From Azolla caroliniana (Eukaryota; Plantae; Polypodiophyta), in NCBI GenBank assembly GCA_043228905.1, contig JBHGNT010000013.1, positions 10,850,001-10,914,000 of the forward strand: a stretch of DNA of 64,000 nt. The letters are read 5' to 3'. Positions 4,335-61,613 of the stretch are shown here, one piece after another. Numbering within the stretch: the first letter of the stretch is position 1; each line of letters opens with the position of its first letter. The position numbers and the translations under genes were made by a program. Below the pieces are notes generated by a model. The model had not been told where the DNA came from, searched no databases, and worked only from the letters and a program-made list of their open reading frames with translations.

Positions 4335-6262
4335 CATTTGATCATCAAAAACTAATCATATTGGGGCCTAATCGGTTACGACTATTAACTAAATGTCTCT
4401 CAAGCATTTGAAGATTCAATCCGAATAGATATAATTTCTGATGAATTTTCTCAAGATATATTGAATCATATAATTTCAGATCACACTTCTTCTTCAAGCT
4501 CCAAGAATCCTCGTAAAGATTATAACTAGTTTAAATGGGAAATGGTTTACTTTTTCGCAACACTCTTTTGTATGTCCCAAATGGTTCGTCTCGACTTCAA
4601 GTAATGTAATATTGTCACGACAATCCAATGGCCAGGCATGTTGGAATCCACAAAACTTTGTATCTAGTTTCTTGAAACTATTGTTTGCCTCACCTTCGAG
4701 AGTTTGTTGAAGATTATGTTTGTAGTTGTGATGTGTGTTGTCGGTCAAAGATTCCACGACATCGACCATATGGGTTATTATAACCATTTCCAGTTCCTAC
4801 TGGTCCGTGGAAATCCATCTCGATGGATTTCATTACAGATCTTCCAATTTCGAAGAGTTTTGATGCTATTCTCACTATAGTAGATCGATTCACAAAGATG
4901 GCGCATTTTCTTCCATGCATGAAAACCATCAACAGTAAAGAAACTGTAGACATCATTATGAAAGAAGTATTTCGGCTTCATGGTCTTCCAAATGACATCA
5001 TTAGTGATCGTGGCCCACAATTCATCTCAAAATTTTGGAAACACTTGCTTGAGATGCTCAAAATCTGTTGTAAAATTTCGTCAAGCTATCATCCACAAAG
5101 TGACGGTCAAACCGAGTAGATGAATCAAATACTAGAGCAATATCTTCAGTGTTTCATCAATTACCAACAGGATGATTGGGTGGATTTTTTACACTTTGTA
5201 GAGTTTGCATACAATAATTTAATTCATTCCTCAACATGGTATACTCCATTTTTTGCAAACATAGGATATCATCCTAGTTGGACAATGATGACACATCCAA
5301 AAATCTCGAAAAATCCTGATGTTGAAGATTGTCTGCGTCAACTCCAAGACGTGCATGTTGCACTTTCTCAACATTTGCAAACTACTCAAGCCACACACAA
5401 AAAAGTCGCAGATCGTCACCGTCTCGACTCTTCACCAAAGGAACTGAAGTTTCGAATTAGGGATCGTGTATGGTTACTACGACGCAATGTGAAGACTACT
5501 AGATCTTGTGACAAGTTGGATTATGAACGACTTGGTCCATTTATTATCTCCAATCAGATTAATGATGTTGCATTCCGCCTTGATCTACCTCCACAATTGC
5601 ATCTACATCCGGTATTTCATGCCTCATTGTTGGAACCCTACATTGGTAGTTCCGTTCCAAATCGGGTTGTTCTACCCCCACCTCCAGTTCAACTTGTTGA
5701 TGGCCCAGAATTTGAAGTCAAAGCTATTTTGGACTCCAAGATAATAAGTAAAAAGCTTTATTATCTCGTGGATTGGTTAGGATATACACCAAATGATTGT
5801 ACTTGGGAGCCAGCTGAGAACCTTGATAATGCCTCTAACTCGGTGGCTGAATTTCATCGCCAATATCCAGATAAGCCAAACTTGTGGAACTCATTGTCAA
5901 AGGAGAGGGATGGTGTCATGTGCATATAAAACTCAATAAGCTTTATGGTGATTCGAACCCATGACCTCCTCAAAGAAGGCATACAACCCCAACCATTAGG
6001 ATACATCATATTGTATACACCAATAGGAAATATATATAATAATATTATTGAAACGTCGCCACCTTGCATAGGCTAACACATGATTGCCAAGGGGCATGCT
6101 TGCATGAATGCCAAGTAGCGATCATGTGTGCCTATGAGGCGGCGAGCATGCATGTATCCAAACCATGCTATATAAACATGTATTTGACTATTGATCTTTC
6201 ATATCTTTCGCATCTCATTCTCTTCTTCATTTTAAAACTCGTTCCTAGCTTTGGCCCTGACA
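4335..6262 (+). mobile_element. Ty3/gypsy chromovirus (Tcn1-like) 3' remnant: integrase, chromodomain and 3' LTR
   Basis: Integrase motifs MDFITDLP, SDRGPQF and YHPQSDGQTE, a GPF motif and the chromodomain FEVKAILDS..YLVDWLGY..TWEP. PPT AAGGAGAGGGATGG precedes LTR TGTCA (5914) to TGACA (6262). Internal stops are present. Confidence 0.93.
5944..6010 (-). promoter_or_regulatory. tRNA-like Pol III A-box/B-box cassette in U3 of the LTR
   Basis: A-box TATCCTAATGG starts at 6003. GAGGTCATGGGTTCGAATC has G53 at 5958, a spacing of 45. A T4 run lies at 5931-5928. Confidence 0.7.
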
Positions 6263-8284: not shown

Positions 8285-10089
8285 TGTGAAGTCAACTTTA
8301 TTGGTAGCAAAAATACTTTTTCATTTTGCCAAAGATAATTCCTTCTAAATAAAAGGTCAAAGGATTGAACCTTACAATAAATAATGATGAATATTATATT
8401 AGAGGCGGTTTTCAAAAGTAGAGAAAAAGATGGAGGGAAAAAAAAAAGCACACGTGGATATGAGGACTTAGGAGCACAGTAGAGAAAAAAGCTTATAATT
8501 TCCTTGTCAGATGTCCAAATGAGAAAAGAAAAGATTCATAAGAAAGCTAACCCAAAGAGCTTTCAAGAATATTTTGGATGTGAAATTTGGGGCTAGAAAA
8601 TAGAAATAGTGAGGAAAAGAAAAGTCGACTCATATATACAAGTGTTTTTTTAGGGGAAAAAGCAAGCAATCCTAAACCTATAAATAAGAGCCTATTCTAG
8701 TGAAGAAGGGGGGGGAGGGAGAAGGAACGCAAAAGCTCTACTCAATTGAAAGTTAAAAGAAGAAGGATCAACAACATAGAGAGGCATCGTCAACAAAGAA
8801 TCACCTTCTTCTATATTCCACTCTCTTCTTTCCTCCACCTCTCTTCCCCCTTCCTTTATAAATTACCTCTCATTATCATATTAAACCCGTTGTAAAATTG
8901 ATTTTTATTTTATAAAAGAATCTATTATATTGTAATAAACTAATGTTTGGTTTCACCTACGTGTCTTATATGTTATTGTCATTTGTGCTTATTTGTTTGT
9001 GTGTCTTGTGACAAGGGAGCGTTTCGGGCTTGCCCATGCACCTCTCCTTTCACAAAGGCATTCAAACTTACATGTCTTATATGTTATTATCATTTGTGCT
9101 TATTTGTTTGTGTGTCTTGTGACAAGGGAGCGTTTTGGGCTTGCCCATGCACCTCTCCTTCCACAAAGCATTCAAACTTACGTATCTTATATGTTATTAT
9201 CATTTGTGCTTATTTGTTTGTGTGTCTTGTGACAAGGAAGCGTTTCGGGCTTGCCCATGCACCTCTCCTTTCACAAAGGCATTCAAACTTACGTGTCTTA
9301 TATGTTATTGTCATTTGTGTTTATCTGTTTGTGTGTCTTGTGACAAGGGAGCGTTTCGGGCTTGCCCATCCACCTCTCCTTTCACAAAGGCAATCAAACT
9401 TTCGTGTCTTGCTTGTGTGTTCGTGCGACTTGTGGCAAGGGAGCGTTCAGGCTTGCCCATGCACCTCTCCTTTTACGAAGGCGTTCGAAATTGTGTCTCC
9501 CGTGTGTAAACCTTGCTTGTGTGTTCACATGTCTTGTAAGAAGGGAGCGTTCAGGCTTGCCCATACACCTCTCTTTTCACAATGGCATTCGAAACTATGT
9601 CTCTCGTGTGTGTAAGTAAGCATTTTCCTTGTGTGTTCGTGTGTCTTGTAACAAGGGAGCATTCGGGCTTGTCCATGCACCTCTCTTTTCACAACGGCAT
9701 TCGAAACTCTGTCTCTCGTGTGTGTAAGTAAGGCTTTTCCTCGTGTGTCCATGTGTAAGCCTTCCTCACGTGCATTCGTTCACCTTGTGACTAGGGGTTG
9801 ATTCGGGCTTGCCCATGCACCTCTCCTTTTCACAAACACGTTCGAATACTCGTGCCTTTTCCTCGTGTGTCCATGTGTAAGCCTTCCTCACGTGCATTCG
9901 TTCACCTTGTGACTAGGGGTTGATTCGGGCTTGCCCATGCACCTCTCCTTTTCACAAACACATTCGAATACTCGTGCCTTGTTTGTGTAAGCCTTCCTTG
10001 TGTTGTGCGCATGAGCCCTATTTCCCTCCCGTCCATAACCTCGGCGGTTCCGCCTCACGATCCGCACATAGTGACGGATTTTCATGACA
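8285..10089 (+). mobile_element. long gypsy-type LTR-like sequence (left boundary uncertain)
   Basis: CCTATAAATA near 8677. The 3' end GTCCATAACCTCGGCGGTTCC...CATGACA resembles the U5 end of the solo LTRs at 49263 and 60886. No TSD was found. Confidence 0.5.
8960..10010. repeat. tandem array of about 9 units of roughly 111 bp with a conserved hairpin core
   Basis: The core TGTGACAAGGGAGCGTTTCGGGCTTGCCCATGCACCTCTCCTTTCACA starts at 9007, 9118, 9228 and 9339, followed by five more diverged copies. Confidence 0.95.
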
Positions 10090-16059: not shown

Positions 16060-17070
16060 CACACCAATTTGTTGCTTTTGACTTTTGGATCTTGTGCCTT
16101 CTTTGTTGATTGATTTAGGTGCGTGCACCTAAACCATACATATTTTGCTGCAAATCTACCATTTGTTACAAAAAATCCTCAATAGAAGCCCATTTGAGGG
16201 ATCCTAACTCTTGCCCAACCCATTGAATAGCTTCCTTGGTTGTTTGTATTTGAGACTTCCATGATTCCATGTCAGATTTCATAGGGTGTTTCTCTATGTC
16301 TGATTCTACCTTCGTCTCCAACTTTGTTTTTGTAATATCTCGCATATGCATTTGGGGTTTGCCTTACAGCTTTGCAAGGAGTCCGGGTCGATATACCGCT
16401 TGAATACGGAGCATGTCCACTCTTGATAGCAATGGCCCCTCCCGAACCCATTACTACCGTAGATGTAACCAGGACGTCCCGGGAGGTCACCCATCCTAGT
16501 ACTGTTCTGGCTCAAACACACTTAACTTGCAATGCTTAAAGCATCCAAACAACCACAAAACTCATGGCATGTGAGTTGCCAAGGTATGTACATTGATCCC
16601 CGACAAGTGGTTGGCGGTCACCTGCAAGTGGATGGTATATCGATTGCAAACGTCACACCAGTTACAAGCGTGAACTACACAACCACCAGAGGCCCGTGAT
16701 TAGTAGTCACCTCATGACGACGGGTTCTACGCTCAGGTGTGATCCCTCCATAGTATATTAGGGTCACACTTTAGGGTTTGTCTTACGGATTTGCAAGGAG
16801 TGTGGGTCGATATACCGCTCGAATACAGAGCATGTCCACTCTTGATAACAATGGGCCCCCCTGAACCCATTACTACTGTAGATGTAACCAGGACTTCCGG
16901 GGAGGTCACCCATCCCAGTGTTGTTCTGGCTCAAGCACGCTTAACTTGCAATGCTTGAAGCATCCATCCAACTTTGTTTTTGTAATATCTTGCATATGCA
17001 TTTGGGTCGCATGATCTATAAATGGCAATGACCGACATAGGGTTGGCATATGCGTCTCAATGATAATCTG
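16060..17070 (-). pseudogene. C-terminal fragment of a MULE transposase, interrupted by a 5S-bearing insert
   Basis: IIETHMPTLCRSLPFIDHATQMHM matches IIERHMPHLCGSLPFIDHATQMRM at 37040-37115. Confidence 0.75.
16357..16966 (-). mobile_element. 5S rRNA-derived repeat, 1.5 units of 419 bp (Cassandra-TRIM-like or SINE3-like)
   Basis: Two copies (16462-16546 and 16881-16965) of AGTTAAGCGTGCTTGAGCCAGA..GGATGGGTGACCTCC..GGAAGTCCT, matching the plant 5S A-box/IE/C-box region. Flanked by a 40-bp direct duplication. Confidence 0.8.
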
Positions 17071-23397: not shown

Positions 23398-24124
23398 TGT
23401 TAGGAAATAGGTCCCTCCGGATGAGGACTACTCGGCTACAAATGACCCGGTGAGAACCGGATGATGAAGACCCGGTGAGAACCGGATGAGGAGTACCCGA
23501 CTACGGATGACCCGGTGAGAACCGGATGATGAAGACCCGGTGAGAACCGGATGAGGAGTACCCAGCTACGGATGACCCGGTGAGAAGCGGATGATGAAGA
23601 CCCGATGTGAACCGGATGAGGAGTACTCGGCAAGAGCCGGATGGTGAAGGCCCGATGAGAAGTGCTCACCGGATGAAGGGACATATTTGTAAATATGTTT
23701 CTGAGAGTCCATCAGGGCTATATTTGTAAATAGCCGAAAAGTCATACTAGTATAAATATGACTTAGGGCAAACTTTAGTGATATATGAGTTGTTGTCATT
23801 CTTGTTGATGCAAGACTAGAGAGCGCGTAACAGTGTACAGAGAGAGAGAGAGAGGAAGAGGTCGTTGCCTCTGTTGTAACCGCCGCCTGTGGCGAAGATC
23901 GTGAGCACGAGGTTGTTGCCTCCATGAACTCACTGTTGTAATCATTGTGATCATAGTTCTAGCCATACGTCCCATTCATGTCATACTCAAACGCCAATAT
24001 TCGTATCATACTCATACGTGAAAAGGCTCCAAGTATGATTGAAATCCATACGCGGTACATAGATATATTATATATACATATGGTGTATATGGTGTACATA
24101 GTGTGTGTGTGTGTGTGTGTGAGG

Positions 24125-26031: not shown

Positions 26032-26464
26032 TGTCAGGAATAGTACTAAAACAGAGATGGAATTAGTACTAAGAACAACAGTACTATTAGTACTAAGAGG
26101 ACGGGACTGCGTAAGATTCCCGAGAGAGGAAGTGAGAAGAGGAGAGAGAGAGAGAGATAGCGAGAATGAGAGAGATGATGACAGCAGCTATATATTATGT
26201 GAAAAGATAAGTACAAGCGGCTAAGAGGCTTAAGACTGGCGTTGAACCAATTTGGTTCAAAACAATGCCTTGTGCCTCCTTTTATAGTGTTTTTAGGAAT
26301 AATCTTGAAGCTTCTAGAATGTTCCAGAGAGATTTGGAATATACATCAATTTTCTATGATAAAGTATAAATGAAAATAATATCCTACAAAATACAATTCC
26401 TAATCTAATGGTAAGAGCTCGACCCATGTAGCATAAAGTCATGGGTTCGAGTCTTGCCATGACA
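26032..26464 (-). repeat. 3' LTR (433 bp)
   Basis: Direct repeat of 31270-32466, adjacent to the PPT at 26465-26477. Confidence 0.97.
26394..26460 (+). promoter_or_regulatory. tRNA-like Pol III A/B-box cassette at the U3 start of the 3' LTR
   Basis: A-box TAATCTAATGG starts at 26401. B-box GGTTCGAGTC has G53 at 26445, a spacing of 44. Confidence 0.7.
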
Positions 26465-26475
26465 CTATCGCCCCC

Positions 26476-29400
26476 TTAAAGACAACGAGTGGAACGAGTC
26501 GGCGCTAACTGCGGACCGGGTTTGTCCGGATACTTTCGGTGGAAATCAGCAAGAAGATCTTGTGCATTTGCAACATTCTCGACGGGTTCCCAAGTACGTT
26601 CGCTCGGACTATAACCGAGCCAATCGACCAAGTAATAAAGTTTGTTGCGAACAAGTTTGGAATCGAGGATGGCTGCAACTTCATACTCCGGGCCGGCGTC
26701 CAACTCCAGCGGGGGCGGCGGTGGTGTCACACGATCGGGAATGGTGTTTGCTTTATAAGGTTCAAGAAGAGAACAATGGAAAACCGGATGTATCTGAAGC
26801 TGCGGAGGGAGATCCAGGCGGAAGGTGACATCATTAATCTTCCCCGTAATACGAAAAGGACCGAGTCGTCGATAATCCAACTTGTCGCACGGTCGAGTAG
26901 TCTTGATGTGACAACGTAAGAGCCATACTCGATCTCCGATGGCAAAAGAGGAGGGAATCCGATGACGATCCGCATAAGTCTTCTGTGTGTGTTGAGCATG
27001 ACGAAGGTGAGTAGAGAGATCCATCTGGATCTTGCGTAGCCTCTCCAAATGGTCCTCGGCACGAGGGTTGGTAGGTAGCTCCGGAGTGTCGATCACCGAC
27101 CAGCGAGGATGGAAACCGGTATAAGCGAGAAATGGGGAGACCCGAGTCGAGGAGTGAATAGCATTATTATACGCAAACTCCGCAAAGTGGAGAATCTCGG
27201 CCCAATCGTCCTGTTGATAACTCAGGAAACACCGGAGATATTGCTCCAACGTTTGGTTTGTTCGTTCCGCCTGTCCGTCAGTTTGAGGATGGTAGCCGGA
27301 GGAGAGGTTGCAGGAGACCTTGAGCATCCTGAAGAGATGCTGCCAAAATTTGGAGACAAATTGCGGGCCTCGGTCACTGATAATACTGTCTGGTAGGCCA
27401 TGATGCCGAAATACCTCACGCATAACAAGAGCGGCGGTTTCCTCGCTAGTGATGGCTTTAGTACATGGCACAAAATGTGCCATCTTCGTATATCGATCGA
27501 CGACGGTTAGGATAGCATCGAACCCCTTCGAGACTGGCAGATCTGTAATAAAATCAAGACAAATAGACTGCCATGGCTTACTTGGAATTGGTAAAGGTTC
27601 CAACAAGCCATATGGATGGTGTCGTGGCATCTTTGCTCGGCAGCAAGCATCACAGGTCCGAACGTAGTCGTCAACAAAACGGCGCATGTGGGGCCACCAA
27701 AAAGATCGCTGCACTAACTCCAACGTCTTGGTACTACCGAAATGTCCCGCCGTATGGGTGTCGTGACAATGTTGGACGATTTGAAGGCGACAGGAGCAAT
27801 CGGGGACATATACGCGCTTTTTAAAGAATAACAAACCATCATGATATTCGAATTGTCGGTAGTCAATACCTGGTTGTTGAGACTGAGAACAGGATGCCCG
27901 AGAAGTATCAATGTGCGCCAGGATGTCTTGAGCAAAACTATCCGTCTTCAAGGTTGCACGTATGTCATCGGTAATCCGTGAATCCATCGGGGTGTGAAAA
28001 ATCCGCGTCGTGTGCAATCGTGTTGGTCCCAAGATTACTTGCTTTTGATTATCAAATGTTGCGTCACCAGGACGAGGTGCAAGATATGAACGCCGTGATA
28101 GTGCATCTGCTTTTCCTTGCTGCTTCCCTGGTCGATATGTGATTTCGAAGTTGAAACGCGTGAGGAATTGCGCCCACCGAGCTTGCCGTCGATTTAGTAC
28201 GTTAGCGTTCTGAAAATAAGCAAGATTTTTATGATCGCTAAAGACAATGACCTGATGTGGAGAGCCCTCTAAGAAATGCCGCCATTGTACAAATGAATCC
28301 ACGATGGCTAATAACTCCTTGTCATGTATTTCGTAGTTGATTTTTGCGACATTGAATTTGCGCGAATGGAAAGCCACCGGATGCAACTCTTCTTTATCGC
28401 CTTGTTGAGAAAGGATGCTACCGAGGGCGAAATCTGATGCGTCGGCCTCCATGATGAATGGTTTGCTTGTATCCACATGAGCTAGAATCGGTGCTGATGT
28501 AAAGGCTTTCTTAAGATGCCGAAAAGCCATATCTGCTTCGATGGACCAAAGAAATGCTTGGCCCTTCTTCGTAAGTTGTGTGAGAGGTAAAATAATCTTC
28601 GAGTAATCCTGTATAAACTTACGGTAGAAGTTAGCAAAGCCTAGAAAACATTGTACATCTCGTACCGACCGTGGAATTTGCCACTCTAGTACAGTTTGGA
28701 TTTTAGCTGGATCCATGGCGATGCCCTTTGAGGAGATGACGTAGCCTAGAAATTCCACTTGCTTGCAGTCAAAGCTACATTTCTCTAGCTTGGCATAAAG
28801 ACCATTCTCGCGGAGTCGCTTTAGTACTAATAGTACATGAGAATCGTGCTCTTCCTGGGTCTTCGAATAAATCAACAGATCATCCAGATAAATGATCAAA
28901 CAGATATCCAAGAGGTCTCTGAATATATCATTTGCCATGTGTTGGAAGACTGCGGGTGCATTGGTTAGGCCAAACGGCATAACAGTATACTCGAAATGCC
29001 CATACCGCGTGCGAAAAGCGGTCTTCCACTCATCTCCCGGTCGGATCCGCACGAGATTATACGCTCCTCGTAGGTCGATTTTAGTAAAAAACTTGGCACC
29101 ATTAACTCGCTCTAAAAGACTTGATATAAGAGGAAGTGCATACCTATTCTGGATGGTGACTTTATTCAATCCGCGGTAATCAACGACAAGACGAAGTGAG
29201 CCATCTTTCTTCTTGACAAAGAAGATGGGTGCACCGGCCGGAGATTTCGAATGACGGATGAACCCGCTTGCCAAGTTCTCCTCTATGTAGGCTCGAAGGA
29301 CTTCTAACTCGGTGGGTGACAAGTTGTAAATTGGTCCCCATGGTGGCTCGGTTCCTGGTTGTAAATCGATGGGACAGTCATAGGGACGGTGATGAGGAAG

Positions 29401-30057
29401 GGTACCGGCTTTTACCTTGTCAAATACATCGGCATAAGGATGATATTTTGCCGGAAGTTGTATTGAGGAGTCCTTCTTAATAGTGCTAGAAGGATGTACT
29501 GATATGGCAAATAGGAACATTGCCTCCTTGGGTCCTTCTTCGTGTAGTTGATGGAGTGAAATGGTCGAAACTCGGTGAGTTGATTCTTGGGGTGGTCGAT
29601 ATCGGACTTCTCTTGTTCTCCAATCTATGGCTGGATTATGTAATTCAAGCCAAGGTAATCCTAGGACAATGGGATGCTCTGGACTACTAATTATATTAAA
29701 TGATATTATACACACAAAATTACCTAGGACAACTTGAATGGGTTCTGATTCTTCTACAATATTCCCGGAAGCAATGGGACGACCATCAATGACCACTACA
29801 GATGCGGGACGAGGAAGTTTTCTTAAGGATATCTGAGAAGCTTGGGCAAAATTTCGATCCATGAAACAGGAATTAGCTCCGGAATCTAAAAGTGCTAGGA
29901 CGGGTACTGGGGGAGTACTTTTAGTACTAACAATGACTTGGGCTAGGAACACATTGCTAACTTGCTTGGAAGGAATGGAACCACTAATGGACTGTACAGA
30001 TCTAGGGCTGCTGTCCAACCAAATGGCTCCTATTTTGGCTGGACTCAATCGTTTAAC
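26476..30057 (-). CDS. pol polyprotein (PR-RT-RNaseH-INT-chromodomain), uninterrupted, about 1190 aa
   Basis: Motifs ALLDSGANSCF, IYLDD, ADASDFALG, HHCC zinc finger, SDRGPQF, TDGQAE, GPF and chromodomain YEVAAILDS..YLVDWLGY..TWEP. It lacks its own early ATG and lies in the -1 frame of gag. Confidence 0.97.
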   Translation of the reverse strand, partial: VKRLSPAKIGAIWLDSSPRSVQSISGSIPSKQVSNVFLAQVIVSTKSTPPVPVLALLDSGANSCFMDRNFAQASQISLRKLPRPASVVVIDGRPIASGNIVEESEPIQVVLGNFVCIISFNIISSPEHPIVLGLPWLELHNPAIDWRTREVRYRPPQESTHRVSTISLHQLHEEGPKEAMFLFAISVHPSSTIKKDSSIQLPAKYHPYADVFDKVKAGTLPHHRPYDCPIDLQPGTEPPWGPIYNLSPTELEVLRAYIEENLASGFIRHSKSPAGAPIFFVKKKDGSLRLVVDYRGLNKVTIQNRYALPLISSLLERVNGAKFFTKIDLRGAYNLVRIRPGDEWKTAFRTRYGHFEYTVMPFGLTNAPAVFQHMANDIFRDLLDICLIIYLDDLLIYSKTQEEHDSHVLLVLKRLRENGLYAKLEKCSFDCKQVEFLGYVISSKGIAMDPAKIQTVLEWQIPRSVRDVQCFLGFANFYRKFIQDYSKIILPLTQLTKKGQAFLWSIEADMAFRHLKKAFTSAPILAHVDTSKPFIMEADASDFALGSILSQQGDKEELHPVAFHSRKFNVAKINYEIHDKELLAIVDSFVQWRHFLEGSPHQVIVFSDHKNLAYFQNANVLNRRQARWAQFLTRFNFEITYRPGKQQGKADALSRRSYLAPRPGDATFDNQKQVILGPTRLHTTRIFHTPMDSRITDDIRATLKTDSFAQDILAHIDTSRASCSQSQQPGIDYRQFEYHDGLLFFKKRVYVPDCSCRLQIVQHCHDTHTAGHFGSTKTLELVQRSFWWPHMRRFVDDYVRTCDACCRAKMPRHHPYGLLEPLPIPSKPWQSICLDFITDLPVSKGFDAILTVVDRYTKMAHFVPCTKAITSEETAALVMREVFRHHGLPDSIISDRGPQFVSKFWQHLFRMLKVSCNLSSGYHPQTDGQAERTNQTLEQYLRCFLSYQQDDWAEILHFAEFAYNNAIHSSTRVSPFLAYTGFHPRWSVIDTPELPTNPRAEDHLERLRKIQMDLSTHLRHAQHTQKTYADRHRIPSSFAIGDRVWLLRCHIKTTRPCDKLDYRRLGPFRITGKINDVTFRLDLPPQLQIHPVFHCSLLEPYKANTIPDRVTPPPPPLELDAGPEYEVAAILDSKLVRNKLYYLVDWLGYSPSERTWEPVENVANAQDLLADFHRKYPDKPGPQLAPTRSTRCL

Positions 30058-31201
30058 TCTTCATCTAATTGACTAAGGATTTCAAATTTATTTGAGATAC
30101 TTGGGCTATTAGTACTATGAATACTATCTGACACTCTATTAGTACTATTAATACTATCAGACACTCCAAAGGGAAGAATTGACTCGGGTTTAGTACAGGC
30201 GACGATTTGATTTACCTGTCTTCTTGGCCTATGGGGACAATTGATGGCGATATGTCCTGGTCCACCGCAATAAAGACATAATCGATTGGCACGTCGTCGT
30301 TGCTTTTCTTCTTCCGATAACGGGCCGCGTCGACGCATGGTATCGATCTCCATCGGTGTCGAAGTATTTGCTTGAGGTGTGTCTCGTGCAAACGGTTTAG
30401 CCGCGACTGCGGCGTAAGTGGGCTCTGGCCTAGAGCGTAGTATCTGTAATTGACGTTCTGAACGCCGTTCAAAAAGGCGGTTGTCACATCGAACTGCTCG
30501 ACTGATTGCCTCCGTAAGAGACTTTGGTTCTTCGGGGAAAGTTAGAAGTAGATCTTTGACATCGTTTCGCAAGCCATAGCGAAACTGCTCCATTAGTGCT
30601 TGATCATCCCAGGGTATATCTGAAGCAAGTAGGCGGAAATCCGCCGCGTAGGCAGAGGCTGGACGATCGCCTTGATACAATCGCCGGATCTTGTTGATCG
30701 CCGTCCTGATGTTGTCGGTGTCTCCAAAGCAGGCTTTAAACTCACCAATAAAATCTTCAAAGTTATTAAGTAAGGGTGATTGTTTTTCTAGAAGCGGAGC
30801 AAACCATGCCAAGGCTAAGCCGCTAAGTAGCGTGCCTATTAGGCCGACTCGAGATGCATCAGTGGGAATCGGGAAGGATGCATCTGGATGACTAAGCGTA
30901 CCTGATTAAGGAATCCCCGGAATTGCGAACGCGTTCCATCAAATTTCACAGGAAGTCCAATCTTGGGCTCTTTATGAAATCCTTGGGGACTGGATCCTTG
31001 TTGTTGCAACGCTGCTTCGAGTTGTTGTACCCGTAACGCTAACTCCCCATGTTGTTGTTGCGTTTGTTGTTTTTCTAGAGCGATTTGTTGCAGATCCCCT
31101 ATCAGCCGTTGGTTTTCTTGTTCCAGGGCAACAAACTTTTCTTTTAGGCACTGTAGCTCGGAGAAAACGGATTGGTATTCTTGGGCGCTAACAATAGCCA
31201 T
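30045..31201 (-). pseudogene. gag (coiled coil, capsid, CCHC knuckle) with a 1-bp deletion near 30865
   Basis: ORFs 30839-31201 and 30045-30812 join by one frameshift (..HPSRFP/TDASRVGLIGTLL..). Motifs KFDGTRSQFRGF and CLYCGGPGHIAINC are present. Confidence 0.92.
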
Positions 31202-31255
31202 AGTATAGGGAAAAGGGTAGGAGGATGAGGGAGAGTGACAAGTAGGCTAGAGGAA

Positions 31256-31267
31256 AAATTGGTTCAA
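31256..31267 (-). promoter_or_regulatory. self-priming type primer binding site
   Basis: TTGAACCAATTT lies 2 nt after the 5' LTR, is not a TGG-type tRNA PBS, and is exactly complementary to AAATTGGTTCAA (32255-32244) about 33 nt after TATAAAA. Confidence 0.85.
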
Positions 31268-31387
31268 ACTGTCAGGAATAGTACTAAAACAGAGATGGAA
31301 TTAGTACTAAGAACAACAGTACTATTAGTACTAAGAGGACGGGACTGCGTAAGATTCCCGAGAGAGGAAGTGAGAAGAGGAGAGAGA

Positions 31388-32146
31388 AAGGTGTATTAAC
31401 GTCTTCTAAGGCCAAATTTGGCCCATGAGACAATTGGTTTACAACAATAGAGTATTTATCCAGTCATCATAACTAAAAATAAAATTAAGTAAAAAAAAAA
31501 AAATAGAACTTAAACTAAAAGAGTTCTAGTAGTGTACAATATGTAGTATACTCGAAAGTGACTATACACTAAGCCTAATTTTATTTCCACCCAAGCCTCT
31601 CGAAAAGAAGTGGGGGGTCAAAGGGTCTTGATGTGGGTTCCAATGTAGAGAGTGCCCTAGCCATGGCTTCTAGGCGGTGTAGCTCACGTTCCCTTATTTT
31701 CAATATTGCGTCCACATCACGTTGAGTTGTTTTGAAACCCGGCACCCGAGGACGTCTGGTTCTTCTCTGGTTTTCTGCCTCATCAATGGAAAGGCCGAGT
31801 GGTGCAAGTGTGTCGGCATTCGTTGTCTCCTCAGGTTCCTGAAAAACTGCATTTGTTACATGTTCGTGATCATTAGCAGCATTATTGTCAACATTTTGTA
31901 ATTTATTCTCTCTGTGTTGTTTTAGCGCTAGAATGTATTTGCCTAATTTCTTTATATCTAGAGTATCTAATAGTTTGGGGAGGGTGGGAGACGGACCAAG
32001 TATGTCTTGGTATTGTGCCCTTATCTCGGCATAGGTTGGACACTTGCAAGTAAAGTGGTACTCATCCTCTATCTCTATGTGACATAACCTACATATCCTT
32101 TCCTCCCTAGGGACTCCACTAGTACGGCCATTTTCAATCTCAAGTT
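31388..32146 (-). mobile_element. 5'-truncated LINE (RTEX-like) 3' end inserted in a (GA)n tract
   Basis: C-terminal zinc finger QLEIENGR..PREERICRLC..EDEYHFTCKCPTY, stop at 31581 and a 3' UTR. Probable TSD GGAGAGAGA. Confidence 0.88.
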
Positions 32147-32395
32147 GGAGAGAGAGAGATAGCAAGAATGAGAGAGATGATGACAGCAGCTATATATTAT
32201 GTGAAAAGATAAGTACAAGCGGCTAAGAGGCTTAAGACTGGCGTTGAACCAATTTGGTTCAAAACAATGCCTTGTGCCTCCTTTTATAGTGTTTTTAGGA
32301 ATAATCTTGAAGCTTCTAGAATGTTCCAGAGAGATCTGGAATATACATCAATTTTCTATGATAAAGTATAAATGAAAATAATATCCTACAAAATA

Positions 32396-32462
32396 CAATT
32401 CCTAATCTAATGGTAAGAGCTCGACCCATGTAGCATAAAGTCATGGGTTCGAGTCTTGCCAT
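32396..32462 (+). promoter_or_regulatory. tRNA-like Pol III A/B-box cassette in the 5' LTR, pointing outward
   Basis: Identical to 26394-26460. Confidence 0.7.
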
Positions 32463-33109
32463 GACAGTGATAAGGGTGAAGACATACTCACTCAGGTCCC
32501 TGAATGGGAATGTGTCTTCATTCCAATATTGCACTCAGGGCATTGGGTGCTTTGGTTGAAGATGCGACAGACTCCTATAGGTCTCGATGCCAAGGCGAGG
32601 AGCCCAATTGTTTTTTGTGATCCACTAAATAATCATCTGGCTACCGGCATGAAGGCATTGGGTGATTTGGCTGTATGACATATCTCTAGCGCCACACACA
32701 ACCATTGCATCATCAACAACGAGCGGTTCCAAGTATTGCATATCCCAACCCAACCTAATGGGACGGATTGTGGGTATTACGTGATGCAAACCATTCGAAT
32801 GTTGGTTGAGGAGTTCATTCAAGGATTTGAGTCCGATCAATTTGTAAGTATTTATGAGAATTGAATTTGAGCATTTGTTTTTGTAAGGGCTTAGGTGGAT
32901 GGCATCTTGTGGTGTAGGGTAAGGAGCAATGGTTTGGATTCGAAGACGTGGAGCTCCTTCGGAAAATCATGGCAAAATGGACACGAAGGACTCTGGGCAT
33001 AGGGTTATTTTAATCACTAGCATGTTGTACTTGTAACATCAAACATATGAGCTCGATGTACTATCTCATGCGGATTGCCAACTTTTTTGTAATATCAAAT
33101 CAATAGTTG

Positions 33110-33815
33110 AATCTCATTTTGGTTGTATATGACTCAATTTGATGTACATTCTGGTTGTGAGTATTATTATTTGAATCTCCTTCTAGTTGTGAGTCTTATT
33201 ATTTGAATCTCATTTTGGTTGTGAGTCTTATTATTTGAATCTCATTCTGGTTGTATATGACTCAATTTGAATCTCATTCTAGTTAGCGTGTGACTCAATT
33301 TGAATCTCATTCTAGTTAGTGTGTGACTCAATTTGAATCTCATTCTAGTTAGCGTGTGACTCAATTTGAATCTCATTCTAGTTAGTGTGTGACTCAATTT
33401 GAATCTCATTCTAGTTAGTGTGTGACTCAATGTGAATCTTATTCAAAAGCAATGTACAATAATGCAATACTAGTCAATAATGGAGAAGGTATCAAAAGCA
33501 ATGTACAATAATGCAAAACTAGTAAATGCAATACTAGTCAATAATGGAGATTGCCGACAAAGCAATGTACAATAATGCAATACTAGACAATGCAATACTA
33601 GTCAATAATGGAGAAGGTAGACAAAGCAATGTACAACAATGTTATAGGAGGAACCTGACTGATTAATGAGGAGCCCGACTGATTAATGAGGAGCCCAACT
33701 AATTAATGAGGAGCCCAACTAATTAACGAGGAGCCCGACTCGTTACAAAAGAGGAAGCCCGACTGATGAACGAGGAGCCCGACTTGTTACAAAAGAGGAA
33801 GCCCGACTCATTAAT
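33110..33815. repeat. three adjacent minisatellite blocks between the ULP1 and transposase genes
   Basis: A 33-bp unit (TGACTCAATTTGAATCTCATTCTAGTTAGYGTG) at 33250-33440, AAAGCAATGTACAATAATGCAA units at 33446-33640, and roughly 20-bp GAGGAGCCCGACT units at 33646-33815. Confidence 0.92.
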
Positions 33816-34173: not shown

Positions 34174-37100
34174 ATGGAGAGCACAATGCATCATGGTGTC
34201 TTCACCATGTCGGAAGATGAATTGGAGGATATGTCATGGTCATCCAATGCATCGTTTGTATCTGAGGACGAATTGGATATTCCTTTTGAGTCATTAGATT
34301 CTGATCGTGAGGATGAGGCGGTTGATCCCTTCATGTATTGTTCCCCTAGGTATTTTGCATTTTCAAGAGGTACGTATAATTTGATGGTTAAAGATTTATT
34401 GGGACAAGTTAAGGTAACATTGGAAGCATTACGTGATGTCGCGAGGGGAGCACCTCTTTCACTTCATGCATGGAGGCGCATGAAGAGTCGTCTCATACTC
34501 GGGAATGAGAGTGCAATTTACCTTAAAGCATCACCTAATCTTCAAGTATTATACGTTGAGAAATGGAGGGAACTAGCATTTGCGTAACAGGGTGACACAT
34601 CCCATCACACGTTTTCAAAGACTCTTAAAGAGTTAAAGCTAGTTTATGCGACTGATGTACGTGATTATGGCATCCCACTAGAGTATGTAAAAGCACTCCT
34701 TACAAGTCGTGGTTGCCAAATGGTATCGAAGGTCGACCCGATAGAAGGTTTGGGATCAAGCATGGCCAAATATAACAAGATCCTACCCATAGAAGTGATC
34801 AAGGTAGAAACCCACTAGTTAGATGTTGCACTCATAGATTTGCAAACCAAGTACCACACACTTTTAAGGAAAGGAGTCAAGAAGGGCATGCGTGTGACTA
34901 GGTATAGTTGCCATCGTGCTGGGACATCTCGACTTGCATCTAATTCCACTCGACGAGGCAGGTGCACACTCCGATGTGGATGTTAGAATGAATGACGATG
35001 TTGACAATGAGATACTTACCATTTCAATATATGGACCTCAAGTGGTCATGTACCATGTAGTAGGTCGGATGTGTACCATTTGCCAGTACACCCCAATGTC
35101 ATAAGTTGTTGCAAAGATGACCTATTTGATGTTGGGTGTGCAAGGCATGTGGCACGAATGAGCATGCGTAAGGAAGCATATCATAAGTCCAAGGCTAGTC
35201 CATTAGGGCTTATTAGCTATCGGTTCTTTATGATAACAAAGGAGGTCCATAACATGGCAAATAGGTTAAAAATCAGGAGTGCCATGACTAATGTTGATTG
35301 GGCTTTGATGATGCAAGATGCCTATGCACTCCGAGATCTTGGGAAAGTGGCTCATGTTCAACCCTACCTGCCTAGTGAACCAGGATCTCCCGCCAAACAA
35401 CCATTTATCTTGATACTTCAAGATCAATGGATGTTGGAAATGTGTGAGCGGTTGACCCTGAACAACTCTTGGGCAATCGACTCAACATTTAAAACAAACC
35501 AATTCGGGCTACCATTATATGCAACAGTTGCCCCCAACGCCATGGAAATTGGGATCCCATTATGGTACATGCTTTGTAGTTCTAATAAGGGGTCAAACCA
35601 TGAGCAAGTCGCATTAGAAACTTGTTTGAGAGTCATATTCGCAAGGATGCCCACGGTGAGGCCAAATACGATAGTGATTGATAAATGTTGGACATCATAT
35701 AATGCCATAACTAATGTGGTTGCAACAGACCGTCAATCTTGGATTGTTGTAAATGGGCAACGATTGCAAGCACATTGTCGACTTTTGTTGTGTCAGTTTC
35801 ACGCCAAAAAGTCATGGGTGGACAACTTGTTGCCAAAAGTAAGTGCAACTAAGAGAAACCATCTTTATCAACGAATGTGCCAACTGATGCAATGCATTAC
35901 TGAATCCGCATTCAATGCGATGTGTGAGGAGTTAAAGGTAGAATATGCAGACAAGCCTGATGTTTGGCAATATATAGAAGGAGGATGGTGTGGTTTGACA
36001 TGTGTGTGGAGGAAACTCTGGCCCAAGTTTGGTAGAATGTTCAACTATGGACATGTTGACACTACCAATATTGTGGAAAGACATTGGCAGTTTATCAAGT
36101 ATACTACCTTGAGAGGAAGAATAAACCGATCAATTTGTTGAGGAATCGTTGCGGAATTCAAATCACAATAAACAAACAACGCTAAAATAGAATCACACCC
36201 GAATAACAGAAAAGACAAGATAAACAATGGTGCACAAAGATTTACGTGGAAACCCTAAAACGGGGAAAAACCACGGGAACAGAACTTCACTATACAAATA
36301 GTGGATATACACCAACGAGAAGGTTACAACACTCTGTCGAGTGTATCAGCCACACAAGGCTCTTCGCGTCTACTGTTACAAATACAACTATGGCACGGCT
36401 CACGCTTCTTCTCTCTCACACACACGCTCTCTCGTTCTAACTTTGTTCTACCTCTCACTGTTTTCTAAAAGTTTGCCCTAGTTGCATATATACTTACGCA
36501 ACTTTTCGGTTATTTACATACGTAGCCCTCATGGGGCGCACACTTAGACTATTCACAAGTATAGTCTCCCGAGTTGGCTATTTACCCGATTCCGGTTTCG
36601 GCCTCGACCGAGTCCCTCATCAACTCGGCTCCTCGACTGTCGGCTTTCCGGACGGTCGGATCTTCCTCCCACTGGAGGGACATATCCCAACACAATTATT
36701 GACCTTCTGCATGTCTTAATTAGGGACAGTGAAACAGGCACTTGCATAGGATGAACGGTAATAGAGTGGTATAAGCAACGACAAGAAAAATGTGAGAGTG
36801 GTCGGTTTGCACCCTGTGAGAATTGTAGGGATCAAAGGTCCCGACTTAAAGAAGCGGAGAGAATATTGGAAAGGTATGTCGACGATACTTCCACAATGGA
36901 AATTGTCGACGAGGCTCGATATTGGTTTAGAATCTTGAGCATGACGACTCCCACTCTATGGTATAATGTCTCACTCCAATGTTCATATTGTGATTGCCAA
37001 GACATTGCGAGTAAATGTAAGCATTTACTCGGTATCCGAATGATTATTGAGAGGCATATGCCACATTTATGTGGCTCATTGCCTTTTATAGATCACGCGA

Positions 37101-49262: not shown

Positions 49263-49974
49263 TGTCGTGCCTTTCGGTGCCGGATCGTTTGCGTGAGTCG
49301 TATGGGAACTGCTGAGGTTTTGGACTAGGAGAAAGAAGAATATGAGATAATGTTAGTTAGGAAGAGATTGTAAGAAGAAGATATGAAACTCATGAATCCC
49401 ACGAGTATAATGTATTAATGGGTAATTAGATTGTAAGAGAGAATTAGATGGTAAAATCGTGAATCCCACGAATATTTTGTATTAATCAATCCTTCTAAAA
49501 AAAAATCAACGACGACTATACATCTTTCTCTCTTCCTTATATAGTGTTGGAAGAGTCTAAGGTTATCACATGCAAGCATCATGCTTTTCCTAACTTTAGT
49601 TTTCATGCACAGTGCATTTGCATGATTAGCTTTCTATCCCATCTTTTCTTTTAACTCGAGTGTGTATGCATGAATAACTTTTTGTACCATGCATATCTAG
49701 AATATTTACATGGGATAAAGTTTAGTATAACTTTAAAATTCATAATATGCTAGTATAGTGGTAAAGCTTAAAAATCGTTTACATGGAGGTACATGGTTCG
49801 AATCCTGTCCTATGGATGTAACAATCTTTTCTTCTATTTACAAATTTGTCTCTTCATCCAGTGAGAGATTCTCACCGACCTTCTTTATCCGGCTCTTGCC
49901 GGTTCTCCTTACCAATTCCATCCGAAGGGACAAAAAATGTAATTTTCACGTAGTGTGCGCATTACACTACGACA
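49263..49974 (-). mobile_element. gypsy-type solo LTR with antisense tRNA-like cassette
   Basis: TGTCG..CGACA ends, with both termini homologous to 60886-61613. CACTATATAAGG on the minus strand near 49540. TSD is degenerate. Confidence 0.85.
49744..49812 (+). promoter_or_regulatory. tRNA-like Pol III A/B-box cassette
   Basis: A-box TAGTATAGTGG starts at 49751. GGAGGTACATGGTTCGAATCC has G53 at 49796, a spacing of 45. A T4 run lies at 49827-49830. Confidence 0.75.
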
Positions 49975-51744: not shown

Positions 51745-52560
51745 TTTCCCAAAAAGAAGTTACTTTCCCATTAATTAGGAGAGATTATTACAGAAAGACT
51801 ATACAAGGTGGTTTATAGATAAATTGGGGAATCACCCTCCGACTAAGTTCAAGAATATGAGACTACATACATATCTTTTCAAACTAATTACTTAATGTAA
51901 GTAGGTACTTCATCACCGGTCAGTACAAGCCAGATCTTATGGCCTATAACGAAGGGAGGGTGGGAGGTGAGTAGGAAACAACCAATGTGGGGGCTGGTAG
52001 TTCCTTCCACCTTGGGCCGTTTCCTCCTTGCGTCATCATCGGTGTGTTCCGTCATTTTTGCCAGAAGCGCAAACGGGTAGTGACCTCATTGTTGGAGTGA
52101 CCGTAAACCTCGTCCAATTACCCTTGTAGGCAGTTGATAACCATGAACTATATATCCATGATCAATTCCTCTAGGGCTTACCAGATCTTGGAAGACCTTT
52201 AGGCATCGTGCTTTCCATATATACCACAGGGTGAAGCCCACGATCAATATTCAAATCTCCTAGAACCGAGGGGATGCGGTCTTCAAGCCTCTATCAAATT
52301 GGGTCTTGACGAGTTTACCTCTTGTGCATTCATTGCACCAATTGTCTACATTGAAGGTGCTCGTCTAGCTATCAACCGCGAGATCGATTCAAGCCGCCGC
52401 GCTCTACGATGTTGTTCCTTCCACTTTGCAGGCAGCTAGGAGGCGAGCCAATCTGTCCCATACCCTCTAAGTGTCACGACAGGCACACTGAGCTTGAGGG
52501 CAATCCCACAAATAGTGTCTCAGAGTCTCAATAGGTGAAGAATAGATTCGTCAAGCTATC
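51745..52560 (-). mobile_element. L1-like LINE 3' fragment
   Basis: The minus strand reads LIVGFTLWYIWKARCLKVF near 52190-52250, followed by a 3' region with an A-rich end. Confidence 0.7.
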
Positions 52561-53095
52561 AGTCCTATAAATCATAATCGTTGGCACTTCACCATCACAT
52601 TTACACATTTTATCATGGCACTATACATTTTAATGAACCTTTACAATCATATTGCAACACCTTTAGATTATGGGTTAGTGAATAATGTATTGTTTTAGTG
52701 AAAATGATCAATAAACTATTCTTGGTTAGAAGATATAATCGAATCGTGTAAGAGCTTGATTGGGTTACCCTATCAACTTGAGTGTTGGGTATTATTAAAT
52801 AAATTCTTCGAAGGATTGGTTGTATGATAGTTGTATGTTCACATAAATTGTATTATGTTACTTTTTGTTGTAAGAAAGTACTTGAAACGAGAGCAATCAA
52901 GTTGTTTAACAAACTAAAAACGGTTCTTGAAAGAAAGCCCATTTGATTGTAAACAAAAAATATCATTAGATAAAGTAAGGAACTTGGTTGAATGTTTTTT
53001 TTTCCATGTTTAGGTTTAGGGTTATTTTCATGTTATTTTACGAAACCATGCACAATCAAGTCTAAACAACTACTTTTCCAAATGCCATCACGAAA

Positions 53096-53326
53096 TGTGG
53101 GGTTTGAAAGCATGTTCTTTTCGGTCTCCATAAAAAACCTTAGCAATTGAGCTACATCCATTTGGGCTAGTTTTTTATTTGTCTTTTTATTTTTCTTATT
53201 GGGATCATAATGTAGTGATATTTCATTCTTTTATTAACTCGCTTTCTAGATTCCACTTTCGAATGTAGGGGTTAAATACACCACCTCAGGGTCTCTACTT
53301 TACAAGCTTAACAATTGAGCTACATG
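53096..53326 (-). other. two highly degenerate tRNA-derived (SINE-head-like) motifs
   Basis: TGTAGCTCAATTG A-boxes with T8 at 53154 and 53322. Each has a decayed B-box (TTTCAAACC, ATTTAACCC) 45 nt downstream. Confidence 0.4.
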
Positions 53327-53819
53327 AGGGCACTCAATATCTCTCTTTCTTTGAAGTTTCCCCCATTGTATCACCCAATGCACCAATCTCATACAACTCC
53401 ACACTAGCCACCACCATCCATGCCCTGAAGGCACTTACATTTACTACATGTTTGAGCATAGGAGGAAACTTGTAACAAAGTTGGTACCTCACTAGAAGAG
53501 ACTCTTTTTAGTTGTAACACATTTGTTAGTCCCATAAGTCCTATTGTTTAGCTAATTGAGGACATTAATAGATTGTTGTCTTCACTTTAACATTGAGTAC
53601 CCAAGTCCAATAGCATGAGCAAAATCAAAATTTGATATTTTAATTCAATAGGTTTGGCTCTTATAGTTGATGTGGCATGAAATTTTATTACTCTAGATTT
53701 AGATTAAACTCCCTATTTATAATGCTAGCCAACCTATTCATTTATGATGATCCAACTAGTACGAGCTCATTGTCATTAACATGACCACTTGATAACATGT
53801 AAGTGAGGTTGGTTCATGA

Positions 53820-54200
53820 TTATGGACGAGGTTTGTGGCCACTCTGACGACGTGGTCACTACCTGCTTATGCTTTTGGTAGAAATGGAGGAACATACAGA
53901 TGGTGACACAAGGAGGAAACAACTCGAGGTGGAACTAGCAAACCCCATGCTAGCTGTTTCCTACTCACCTCCCACCCTCCCTCCATTGAAGACCAGAGGA
54001 TCGGGCTCGTGTTGGTTGGCGATGATTGCCACTAGTTTATAGCTCTAGATACCTAATTACATTAAGTAGAAAGTAAGAAAGGATATGTACGTAGTCTCAT
54101 ATTCTTGAACTCAAGTAGAGGGTGATTCCTCGACTTAATATATACTTACTTGTATAGTTTTTTTGTAAAAATCTCTCCTAATTAATGGGAAAGTAGCTCC
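53820..54200 (+). mobile_element. second copy of the same L1-like 3' end in opposite orientation
   Basis: Diverged inverted homology to 51755-52120, for example TGTTTCCTACTCACCTCCCACCCTCCCT and TCTCTCCTAATTAATGGGAAAGTA. Confidence 0.7.
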
Positions 54201-60885: not shown

Positions 60886-61613
60886 TGTCGTGCCTTTCGG
60901 CTCCGGATCGTTGCGTGAGTCGGGTGGGAACCGCTGGGGTTTTGGACTAGGAAGAGGAGAGTTTTAAGGCTAATAAGAATATAAATATGTTGTAAGAAAG
61001 AGTTATAGCAAACTCGTGAATCCCACGAGTGTATTGTATTAGATTAATCAATATGAATATAAGAATATAAACTTCGGTTGAAAGAGAATGATATAGAATT
61101 CTTGTGAATCCCACGAGTATAGTTTATTAATTGGTGTTTTTTAGAAACATATCTAGTTTCCAAATATTTTTCACACACAATTACATTGTGCTTCCCATCC
61201 TTATGTAGTGATGAGGAAGTCTTAGTAATCCATGCTTTTTCTCTAACTATAGACCCTATGCTTTTCCTATAGATAGACTATATGCTTTATCTAAAGTGAT
61301 CATGCTTTTTTCTAACTTGTGCGTTTTTTATCATGCACGCTAGATGTGTATGTGTAGCTTTTTCTTTTGTTATGCGTTTTTCTAATGTTTATCCTAGCGT
61401 GAATTTACGTTTCTATGTGGGACATCTATGCTTTAACACTAATGAAATGCTAGTGTAATGGTAAGACATTACATTATTAACATGGAGGTGCAAGGTTCGA
61501 ATCTTGCCCTATGCATGTTCCATTTATTTTGCTATTTTCTTCTATTTCTTCATTTTTTATTGAATCTAATACTATATACGTTTTTCACGTAGTGTACAAA
61601 ATACACTACGACA
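60886..61613 (-). mobile_element. gypsy-type solo LTR with antisense tRNA-like cassette and 4-bp TSD
   Basis: TGTCG..CGACA ends with TSD ACGT/ACGT. Removing it restores the copia protease sequence GGAGACGTATTGCTG. Confidence 0.93.
61444..61510 (+). promoter_or_regulatory. tRNA-like Pol III A/B-box cassette
   Basis: A-box TAGTGTAATGG starts at 61451. GGAGGTGCAAGGTTCGAATCTTGC has G53 at 61495, a spacing of 44, with a GCAAG/CTTGC stem. A T4 run lies at 61527-61530. Confidence 0.75.

Follow-up and report, generated by a model that had tools for sequence, protein, structure and literature searches.

Known tRNA-type and Pol III sequences in LTR elements

The prevailing view of LTR promoters is that they are Pol II units; descriptions of Pol III promoters in LTRs mainly concern non-autonomous TRIMs, which use them to produce their own RNA. 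In yeasts and animals, host loci with A- and B-boxes act as tDNA/TFIIIC barriers that keep chromatin open or insulate, and a tRNA-like stretch is known in the U3 of HIV-1. A search of PMC12789967 for the latter gave no match. Helenus TRIMs/TRIMp3 carry tRNA-derived sequence in their LTRs that is conserved around boxes A and B and is proposed to have originated by SINE insertion into the LTR; the same source states that tRNA-like parts occur in 'not a few' Repbase LTRs, its analysis being restricted to the TRIMs (PMC10886601). Cassandra TRIMs have a Pol III promoter within plant LTRs that is of the 5S type, lies in sense and transcribes the non-autonomous element (PMC10886601, PMC12786077). Pol III units of the A/B-box type are present in the U3 of foamy virus, an autonomous LTR element, together with conserved hairpins, terminators and miRNA products (PMC3993851), and in the bipartite PBS of the tRNA-primed Ty3, U3 is complementary to the T and D arms of one matching tRNA (PMC5371799).

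The cassettes described here, from the 64-kb stretch of DNA that was analysed as a whole (the window), resemble Helenus in being tRNA-derived LTR sequence with conserved boxes A and B that is not a functional tRNA. Helenus is short (311–1263 bp), non-autonomous and without coding capacity, whereas the carrier E2 is 5.7 kb long with open gag and pol and a retained Pol II TATA box. The Helenus promoter is moreover proposed to drive the element's own RNA, while the cassette runs antisense and faces outward from the LTR; since it points away from the element, it cannot make the genomic RNA. This orientation, the tRNA-type boxes and the autonomous carrier also set it apart from Cassandra, with which it shares a Pol III promoter layout within plant LTRs. 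Foamy virus provides the parallel of A/B-box-type units in the U3 of an autonomous element, but no counterpart of the hairpins, terminators and miRNAs reported for it (PMC3993851) was found here. Like the U3 of Ty3, the U3 sense strand is complementary to tRNA T and D arms; unlike Ty3, E2 probably primes itself and the stem positions vary among lineages. With tDNA/TFIIIC barriers, the cassettes share an A/B-box DNA site whose insulating role would here be putative, and they differ from these host loci of yeasts and animals in being mobile and in lying in a plant LTR (PMC11346459).

The initial annotation knew of no description of the arrangement in autonomous plant chromoviruses. This stands in so far as no description of such a cassette in autonomous plant elements was found in the open full-text literature, including passages of PMC2864245, PMC7466625, PMC12786077, PMC13570524 and the preprint of the last (subscription journals and Repbase lie outside this scope); it is narrowed by the tRNA A- and B-boxes known from Helenus LTRs and the Pol III units known from foamy-virus U3.

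Cassettes in the window

Both strands of the window were scanned for A-box plus B-box pairs at a spacing of 40–50 nt against consensus motifs, and a pair had to match 15 or more of the 17 consensus positions. Exactly five pairs reached this cut-off in the 64 kb, all antisense in U3, and these are the five cassettes that had been annotated before, at the places given for them; in 100 block-wise dinucleotide shuffles there were 0.31 pairs on average and never more than 2.

5950–6003, minus strand: cassette in U3 of the E1 3' LTR (T8 at 6003, G53 at 5958)
26401–26453, plus strand: cassette in the E2 3' LTR, antisense to E2 (A-box 26401–26411, variable-loop block 26436–26440, B-box 26444–26453)
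32403–32455, plus strand: same cassette in the E2 5' LTR
49751–49804, plus strand: cassette in solo LTR S4 (T8 at 49751, G53 at 49796)
61451–61503, plus strand: cassette in solo LTR S5 (T8 at 61451, G53 at 61495)

The A-box start of the E2 3' LTR cassette was refined to 26401 and its G53 is located at 26445. The boxes and the T8–G53 spacing of 44–45 nt first noted for these sequences hold in all five, and the distance from the LTR start to G53 is 20, 45, 119 or 179 nt among the window versions. Three cassettes are carried by E1 and E2, two Tcn1-type chromoviruses, and two by the solo LTRs. A profile built from the cassettes detected no further strong copies in the window, the five matching by construction. 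ARAGORN called no tRNA genes in the window, and Rfam gave no tRNA match at E ≤ 5. Six copia or other LTR-like control regions in the window have A+B scores of at most 13, in agreement with the reported absence from copia LTRs. A pair of score 14 near 26255/32257 overlaps the self-priming region, is unmatched by the cassette profile and was taken as chance.

Carrier elements

Element E2 is a full-length chromovirus, E1 comprises the 3' portion of another family, and S4 and S5 are solo LTRs:

4541–6262, plus strand: E1, 3' portion of another chromovirus family (integrase–chromodomain, PPT, LTR at 5914–6262)
26032–32466, minus strand: E2, full-length Tcn1-type chromovirus (TSD GTGAT, LTRs 99.3% identical)
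26032–26464, minus strand: E2 3' LTR, 433 bp, preceded by the PPT, with a Pol II TATA box near 26280–26286
26476–30060, minus strand: E2 pol ORF, 1194 aa, open (protease, RT, RNase H, integrase, SH3, chromodomain)
30045–30905, minus strand: E2 gag ORF, overlapping pol by 16 nt in another frame
31257–31269, minus strand: E2 PBS, without complementarity to any tRNA end; 11 of its nt are complementary to LTR sequence starting 34 nt after the TATA box
31270–32466, minus strand: E2 5' LTR, split by a 757-bp insertion (31391–32147) in a GA microsatellite
49263–49974, minus strand: solo LTR S4, 712 bp (TGTCGT...ACGACA), own TSD ambiguous
60886–61613, minus strand: solo LTR S5, 728 bp, in a copia pol region, with the 4-bp TSD ACGT (NCGN, Phygy-like)

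The E2 LTR pair is identical at 431 of 434 aligned bases, which marks E2 as a young element, and its length without the insertion is 5678 bp. The integrase ends in a chromodomain (PF00385, aa 1126–1176). The Tcn1 clade is known from non-seed plants and has a chromodomain in 100% of cases (PMC6317226 and its Additional file 5). E2 shows the Tcn1 traits of a self-priming PBS, a 5-bp TSD, a gag/pol overlap and a size in the range of 5.5–9.4 kb, and by PBS, TSD, size and ORF layout matches this clade. From the PBS we infer that E2 primes itself in the manner of Tf1; apparently, it therefore needs no tRNA. Among the best 120 protein matches of E2 few are named, and those are fungal.

Both E2 LTRs contain the cassette, within the boundaries set by the 5-bp TSD. 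It is covered by contigs from three DNA runs in the same way as the remaining LTR, so it is not a private insertion. One additional run, presumably of RNA, yielded just a few contigs of low depth, which carry no information on expression. An independent SINE insertion, for which an own TSD or tail and a patchy presence would be expected, was rejected, as the cassette occurs in both LTRs and across the clade without a shared tail. The only insertion in a cassette-bearing LTR is the one of 757 bp in the 5' LTR, located within the microsatellite at some 255 nt upstream of the A-box. It contains a 202-aa ORF without Pfam match.

E1 and E2 share 61% amino acid identity in protein. The LTRs of S4 and S5 are related and can be aligned block-wise at 74–78%, cassette included. 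In other copies of the S4-type LTR on contigs, a purine tract precedes the TG terminus, which fixes the U3 side of S4 and S5 and shows their cassettes to be antisense. The S5 TSD fits the pattern NCGN, loose ends in two runs hint at the same preference, and the S4 TSD gives no clean match; a 4-bp NCGN TSD is the hallmark of Phygy (PMC6317226), a non-chromovirus lineage with a tRNA-Trp PBS. The target-site pattern may point to a Phygy-like lineage, and the S4/S5 group is likely unrelated to the Tcn1 clade. No internal region of S4 or S5 was found in the window or in the 102 related loci fetched (see below), and viral contigs searched for relatives gave none useful. Of the cassettes earlier assigned to at least three gypsy families with non-alignable LTRs, the copies at 26394 and 32396 lie in the two LTRs of one element, and those at 49744 and 61444 belong to the alignable pair S4/S5. 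E1 and E2 are separate families with chromovirus proteins; for S4/S5 gypsy membership is putative, the window holding no protein that shows their superfamily.

Distribution among related chromoviruses

We fetched 102 loci with an integrase–chromodomain alignment and located the PPT and LTR start in 64, four of which were too short. The scored set comprised the remaining 60 loci plus E1 and E2, the other 38 loci being outside that pass. In a quick integrase–chromodomain tree of 63 rows (the 62 scored plus L002), all cassette-positive rows (20 of 20) were placed on one branch (SH-aLRT 95) and the 43 negatives outside it. Weak copies were labelled positive under a relaxed rule, the label of L002 was set by eye, and L025 and L033 (score 12) were left out manually. 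At a fixed cut-off of at least 14, the cassette was found in 15 of 19 loci in the clade versus none of 43 outside; at a cut-off of at least 13, these numbers were 18 of 19 versus one of 43 (relatedness ignored in both comparisons). Sense-strand scores in the scored loci never exceeded 13. The cassette profile, run over 100 of the 102 whole loci at E < 0.001, matched 18 clade members, six of which were absent from the training set.

Among the related loci, the cassette marks one Tcn1-type clade. All its members from outside the window derive from one assembly series; element clade and host lineage are therefore confounded and inseparable. The single profile match outside the clade (L037:11643–11709, minus strand) is a free relic in AT-rich DNA and not in an LTR. 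This relic has a tRNA-like head with the same pattern of boxes and variable-loop block followed by a T run, and represents a possible type of source element. Loci L082–L102 are chromovirus-like contigs in prokaryotic genome assemblies and are probably eukaryotic contamination.

Conservation of the promoter layout

Among nine lineages, mean pairwise identity is 0.74 in the A-box (constrained positions), 0.86 in the B-box and 0.91 in the variable-loop block, versus 0.38 for the anticodon arm and, for the flanks, 0.39 on the upstream and 0.32 on the downstream side. The difference between boxes and anticodon arm has a P of about 2e-5 with positions treated as independent. Positions outside the scoring (16, 20, 44–48) are also conserved (0.87), and an unanchored MAFFT alignment has its conservation peak at the B-box, so the result is not only circular. 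Between S4/S5 and the Tcn1 group, the boxes are 0.80–0.93 and the arm 0.22–0.61 identical; variation within the S4 family is too low for separating boxes from spacer. The T8–G53 distance is 44–45 nt in 19 of 20 cassettes, with indels excluded from the spacer and common on both flanks. Boxes and spacing are hence more conserved than the U3 sequence between and around them, a comparison that had been put forward as a check on the cassette.

Distances in the Tcn1 group are 20–58 nt from the LTR end to G53 and 115–208 nt from T8 to the TATA box. The AT content at −45 to −10 of the A-box is 0.80–1.0 in 19 of 20 copies, and AT-rich upstream DNA belongs to plant tRNA promoters (PMC13437025 and PMC7544208). 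The layout of a type 2 Pol III promoter is thus present, comprising A-box, B-box, tRNA-gene spacing and AT-rich upstream DNA, with G10 of the A-box often lost (0.44). The B-box CpG has changed to TG or CA in nine of 20 copies, mostly on low-coverage contigs, and is intact in five of six high-coverage families, a pattern that suggests selection during replication and methylation of old copies.

No conserved cloverleaf or terminator

Loss of the acceptor and anticodon stems, as described initially, is borne out, with 38% and 45% of cells paired, respectively; in the D and T stems some pairing persists (67% and 62%). Covariation of the whole structure does not go beyond shuffles (92/500), and RNAalifold predicts no pairs for the consensus. 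A conserved cloverleaf or tRNA gene was rejected on the grounds of lost stems, missing covariation and the absence of an ARAGORN or Rfam match. The 11–24 pair of the D stem is kept in 16 of 16 rows, with few independent events, which gives a hint of RNA-level constraint.

The T4 run reported for three of the four window versions is present 27–32 nt after G53, but the E2 copies have no T4 for about 220 and 1429 nt and the relatives are variable. Measured from the predicted start, the first T4 follows after 66–1429 nt overall and after 66–1092 nt in the relatives. As the terminator is not conserved, the discrete RNA of 85–90 nt that had been predicted was dropped.

Proposed function and alternative explanations

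The boxes are conserved, no product is, and E2 apparently has no need for a tRNA primer, which together indicate recognition at the level of DNA and point to selection on a DNA promoter rather than on a defined RNA. From these sequence comparisons we propose, with a probability of roughly 0.5, that the outer-U3 cassette is an outward-facing docking site for TFIIIC/TFIIIB that would hold the adjacent Pol II promoter of a newly inserted copy open or insulated. Its origin would be a tRNA or SINE head captured once by the ancestor of this Tcn1 clade, and the S4/S5 lineage would have obtained it by a second capture or by LTR exchange. TFIIIC would bind at the outer U3 edge, and TFIIIB would occupy the AT-rich tract that separates the cassette from the Pol II TATA box, which is 115–208 nt away, so that Pol III and Pol II promoters would stand back to back. 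The putative benefit to the element is more genomic RNA from young copies, and a Pol III transcript, if any, would be a by-product of variable length. Classical TFIIIC recognition requires neither a variable-loop block nor a fixed spacer length. That this block is conserved like the boxes and the spacer is nearly fixed in length speaks against docking, which explains neither fully. Methylation impairs TFIIIC binding (PMC11346459); with the B-box of old copies probably methylated, shielding, if any, would not be lasting.

If the docking site is real, autonomous, heterochromatin-associated chromoviruses would have a new cis-acting means to stay expressed, and one high-copy family would spread Pol III factor sites genome-wide. 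No paper demonstrating a TFIIIC barrier in plants came up in our literature search, and the cassette would allow a direct test of such activity there. We put forward more tentatively the general form of the proposal, in which captures of a tRNA promoter by autonomous LTR elements have recurred, the promoter being oriented outward at the U3 edge and maintained as a mobile TFIIIC/TFIIIB module for opening or insulating the element's Pol II promoter at each landing site. One plant lineage would then hold at least two such origins or exchanges (Tcn1 clade and Phygy-like).

In Ty1, copy number is limited by antisense RNA. An antisense RNA could likewise be the functional product here if the cassette were a productive Pol III promoter; transcribed from the 3' LTR into the PPT and integrase end, it could limit copy number or seed small RNAs. 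Retention of a full promoter (A-box, B-box and AT-rich tract) instead of a B-box alone would suit this, as would a T4 within 66–107 nt in eight of 13 copies tested and the Pol III units in foamy-virus U3 (PMC3993851), but the wide scatter of the first T4, the lack of a conserved fold and the low identity downstream of the B-box make it unlikely. A different RNA constraint might act on the sense genomic RNA, which just past the PPT is complementary to the D-loop, variable loop and T-loop of tRNA and could anneal a host tRNA for packaging, dimerisation or strand transfer. Such annealing accounts for the variable-loop block and the fixed spacer without TFIIIC, fits the antisense orientation and has a precedent in Ty3, in which U3 base-pairs with tRNAiMet along the T and D arms (PMC5371799). 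We nevertheless rate it as less probable still, given that E2 appears to be self-priming, that T-stem positions expected to track one tRNA vary among lineages (0.33–0.62) and that the AT-rich upstream tract is left unexplained.

The docking site would also be dispensable if a tRNA or SINE relic now provided binding sites for transcription factors of Pol II or formed a short hairpin together with the LTR terminus, with no Pol III machinery involved. On the sense strand, the variable-loop block indeed gives a TGAC core, and in several families it is a mirror of the LTR terminus, L011 showing a matching change. The mirror is broken in L004, L006, S4 and S5, and both boxes and the tRNA-gene spacing would be left without explanation, for which reasons we place this reading lower again, as improbable. 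Least plausible is a neutral passenger, in which case a tRNA or SINE head acquired a single time long ago would have been passed on with no function. One origin would account for the Tcn1 distribution, the free relic of the same pattern in L037 lies outside any LTR, and single old copies do decay at the B-box; however, over lineages about 56–78% identical in protein the spacer is near-random (0.38) and the boxes are not, and indels are excluded from the spacer and common on both sides. The contrast in identity between boxes and spacer largely refutes neutrality.

Other features of the window

The U3 of S4 (49835–49909) is 82% identical, in inverted orientation, to a copia-LTR-like region at 23619–23695, which suggests that LTR pieces were exchanged between lineages. 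The LTR start of S4 and S5 (49943–49974 and 61582–61613) forms a short hairpin, and their U5 contains a repeated palindromic motif conserved between both subfamilies. Two 5S rRNA-like segments on the minus strand at 16317–17006 are part of a repeat with a 419-bp period that is flanked by a 40-bp direct repeat; this region is Cassandra-like, with clear TG...CA ends not seen. A long inverted repeat at 51758–54198 (about 380 bp, 74%) resembles DNA-transposon ends, and a MULE transposase fragment is located at 35011–36138. Tandem arrays with periods of about 111 and 33–64 bp occupy 8955–10013 and 33104–33641, respectively.
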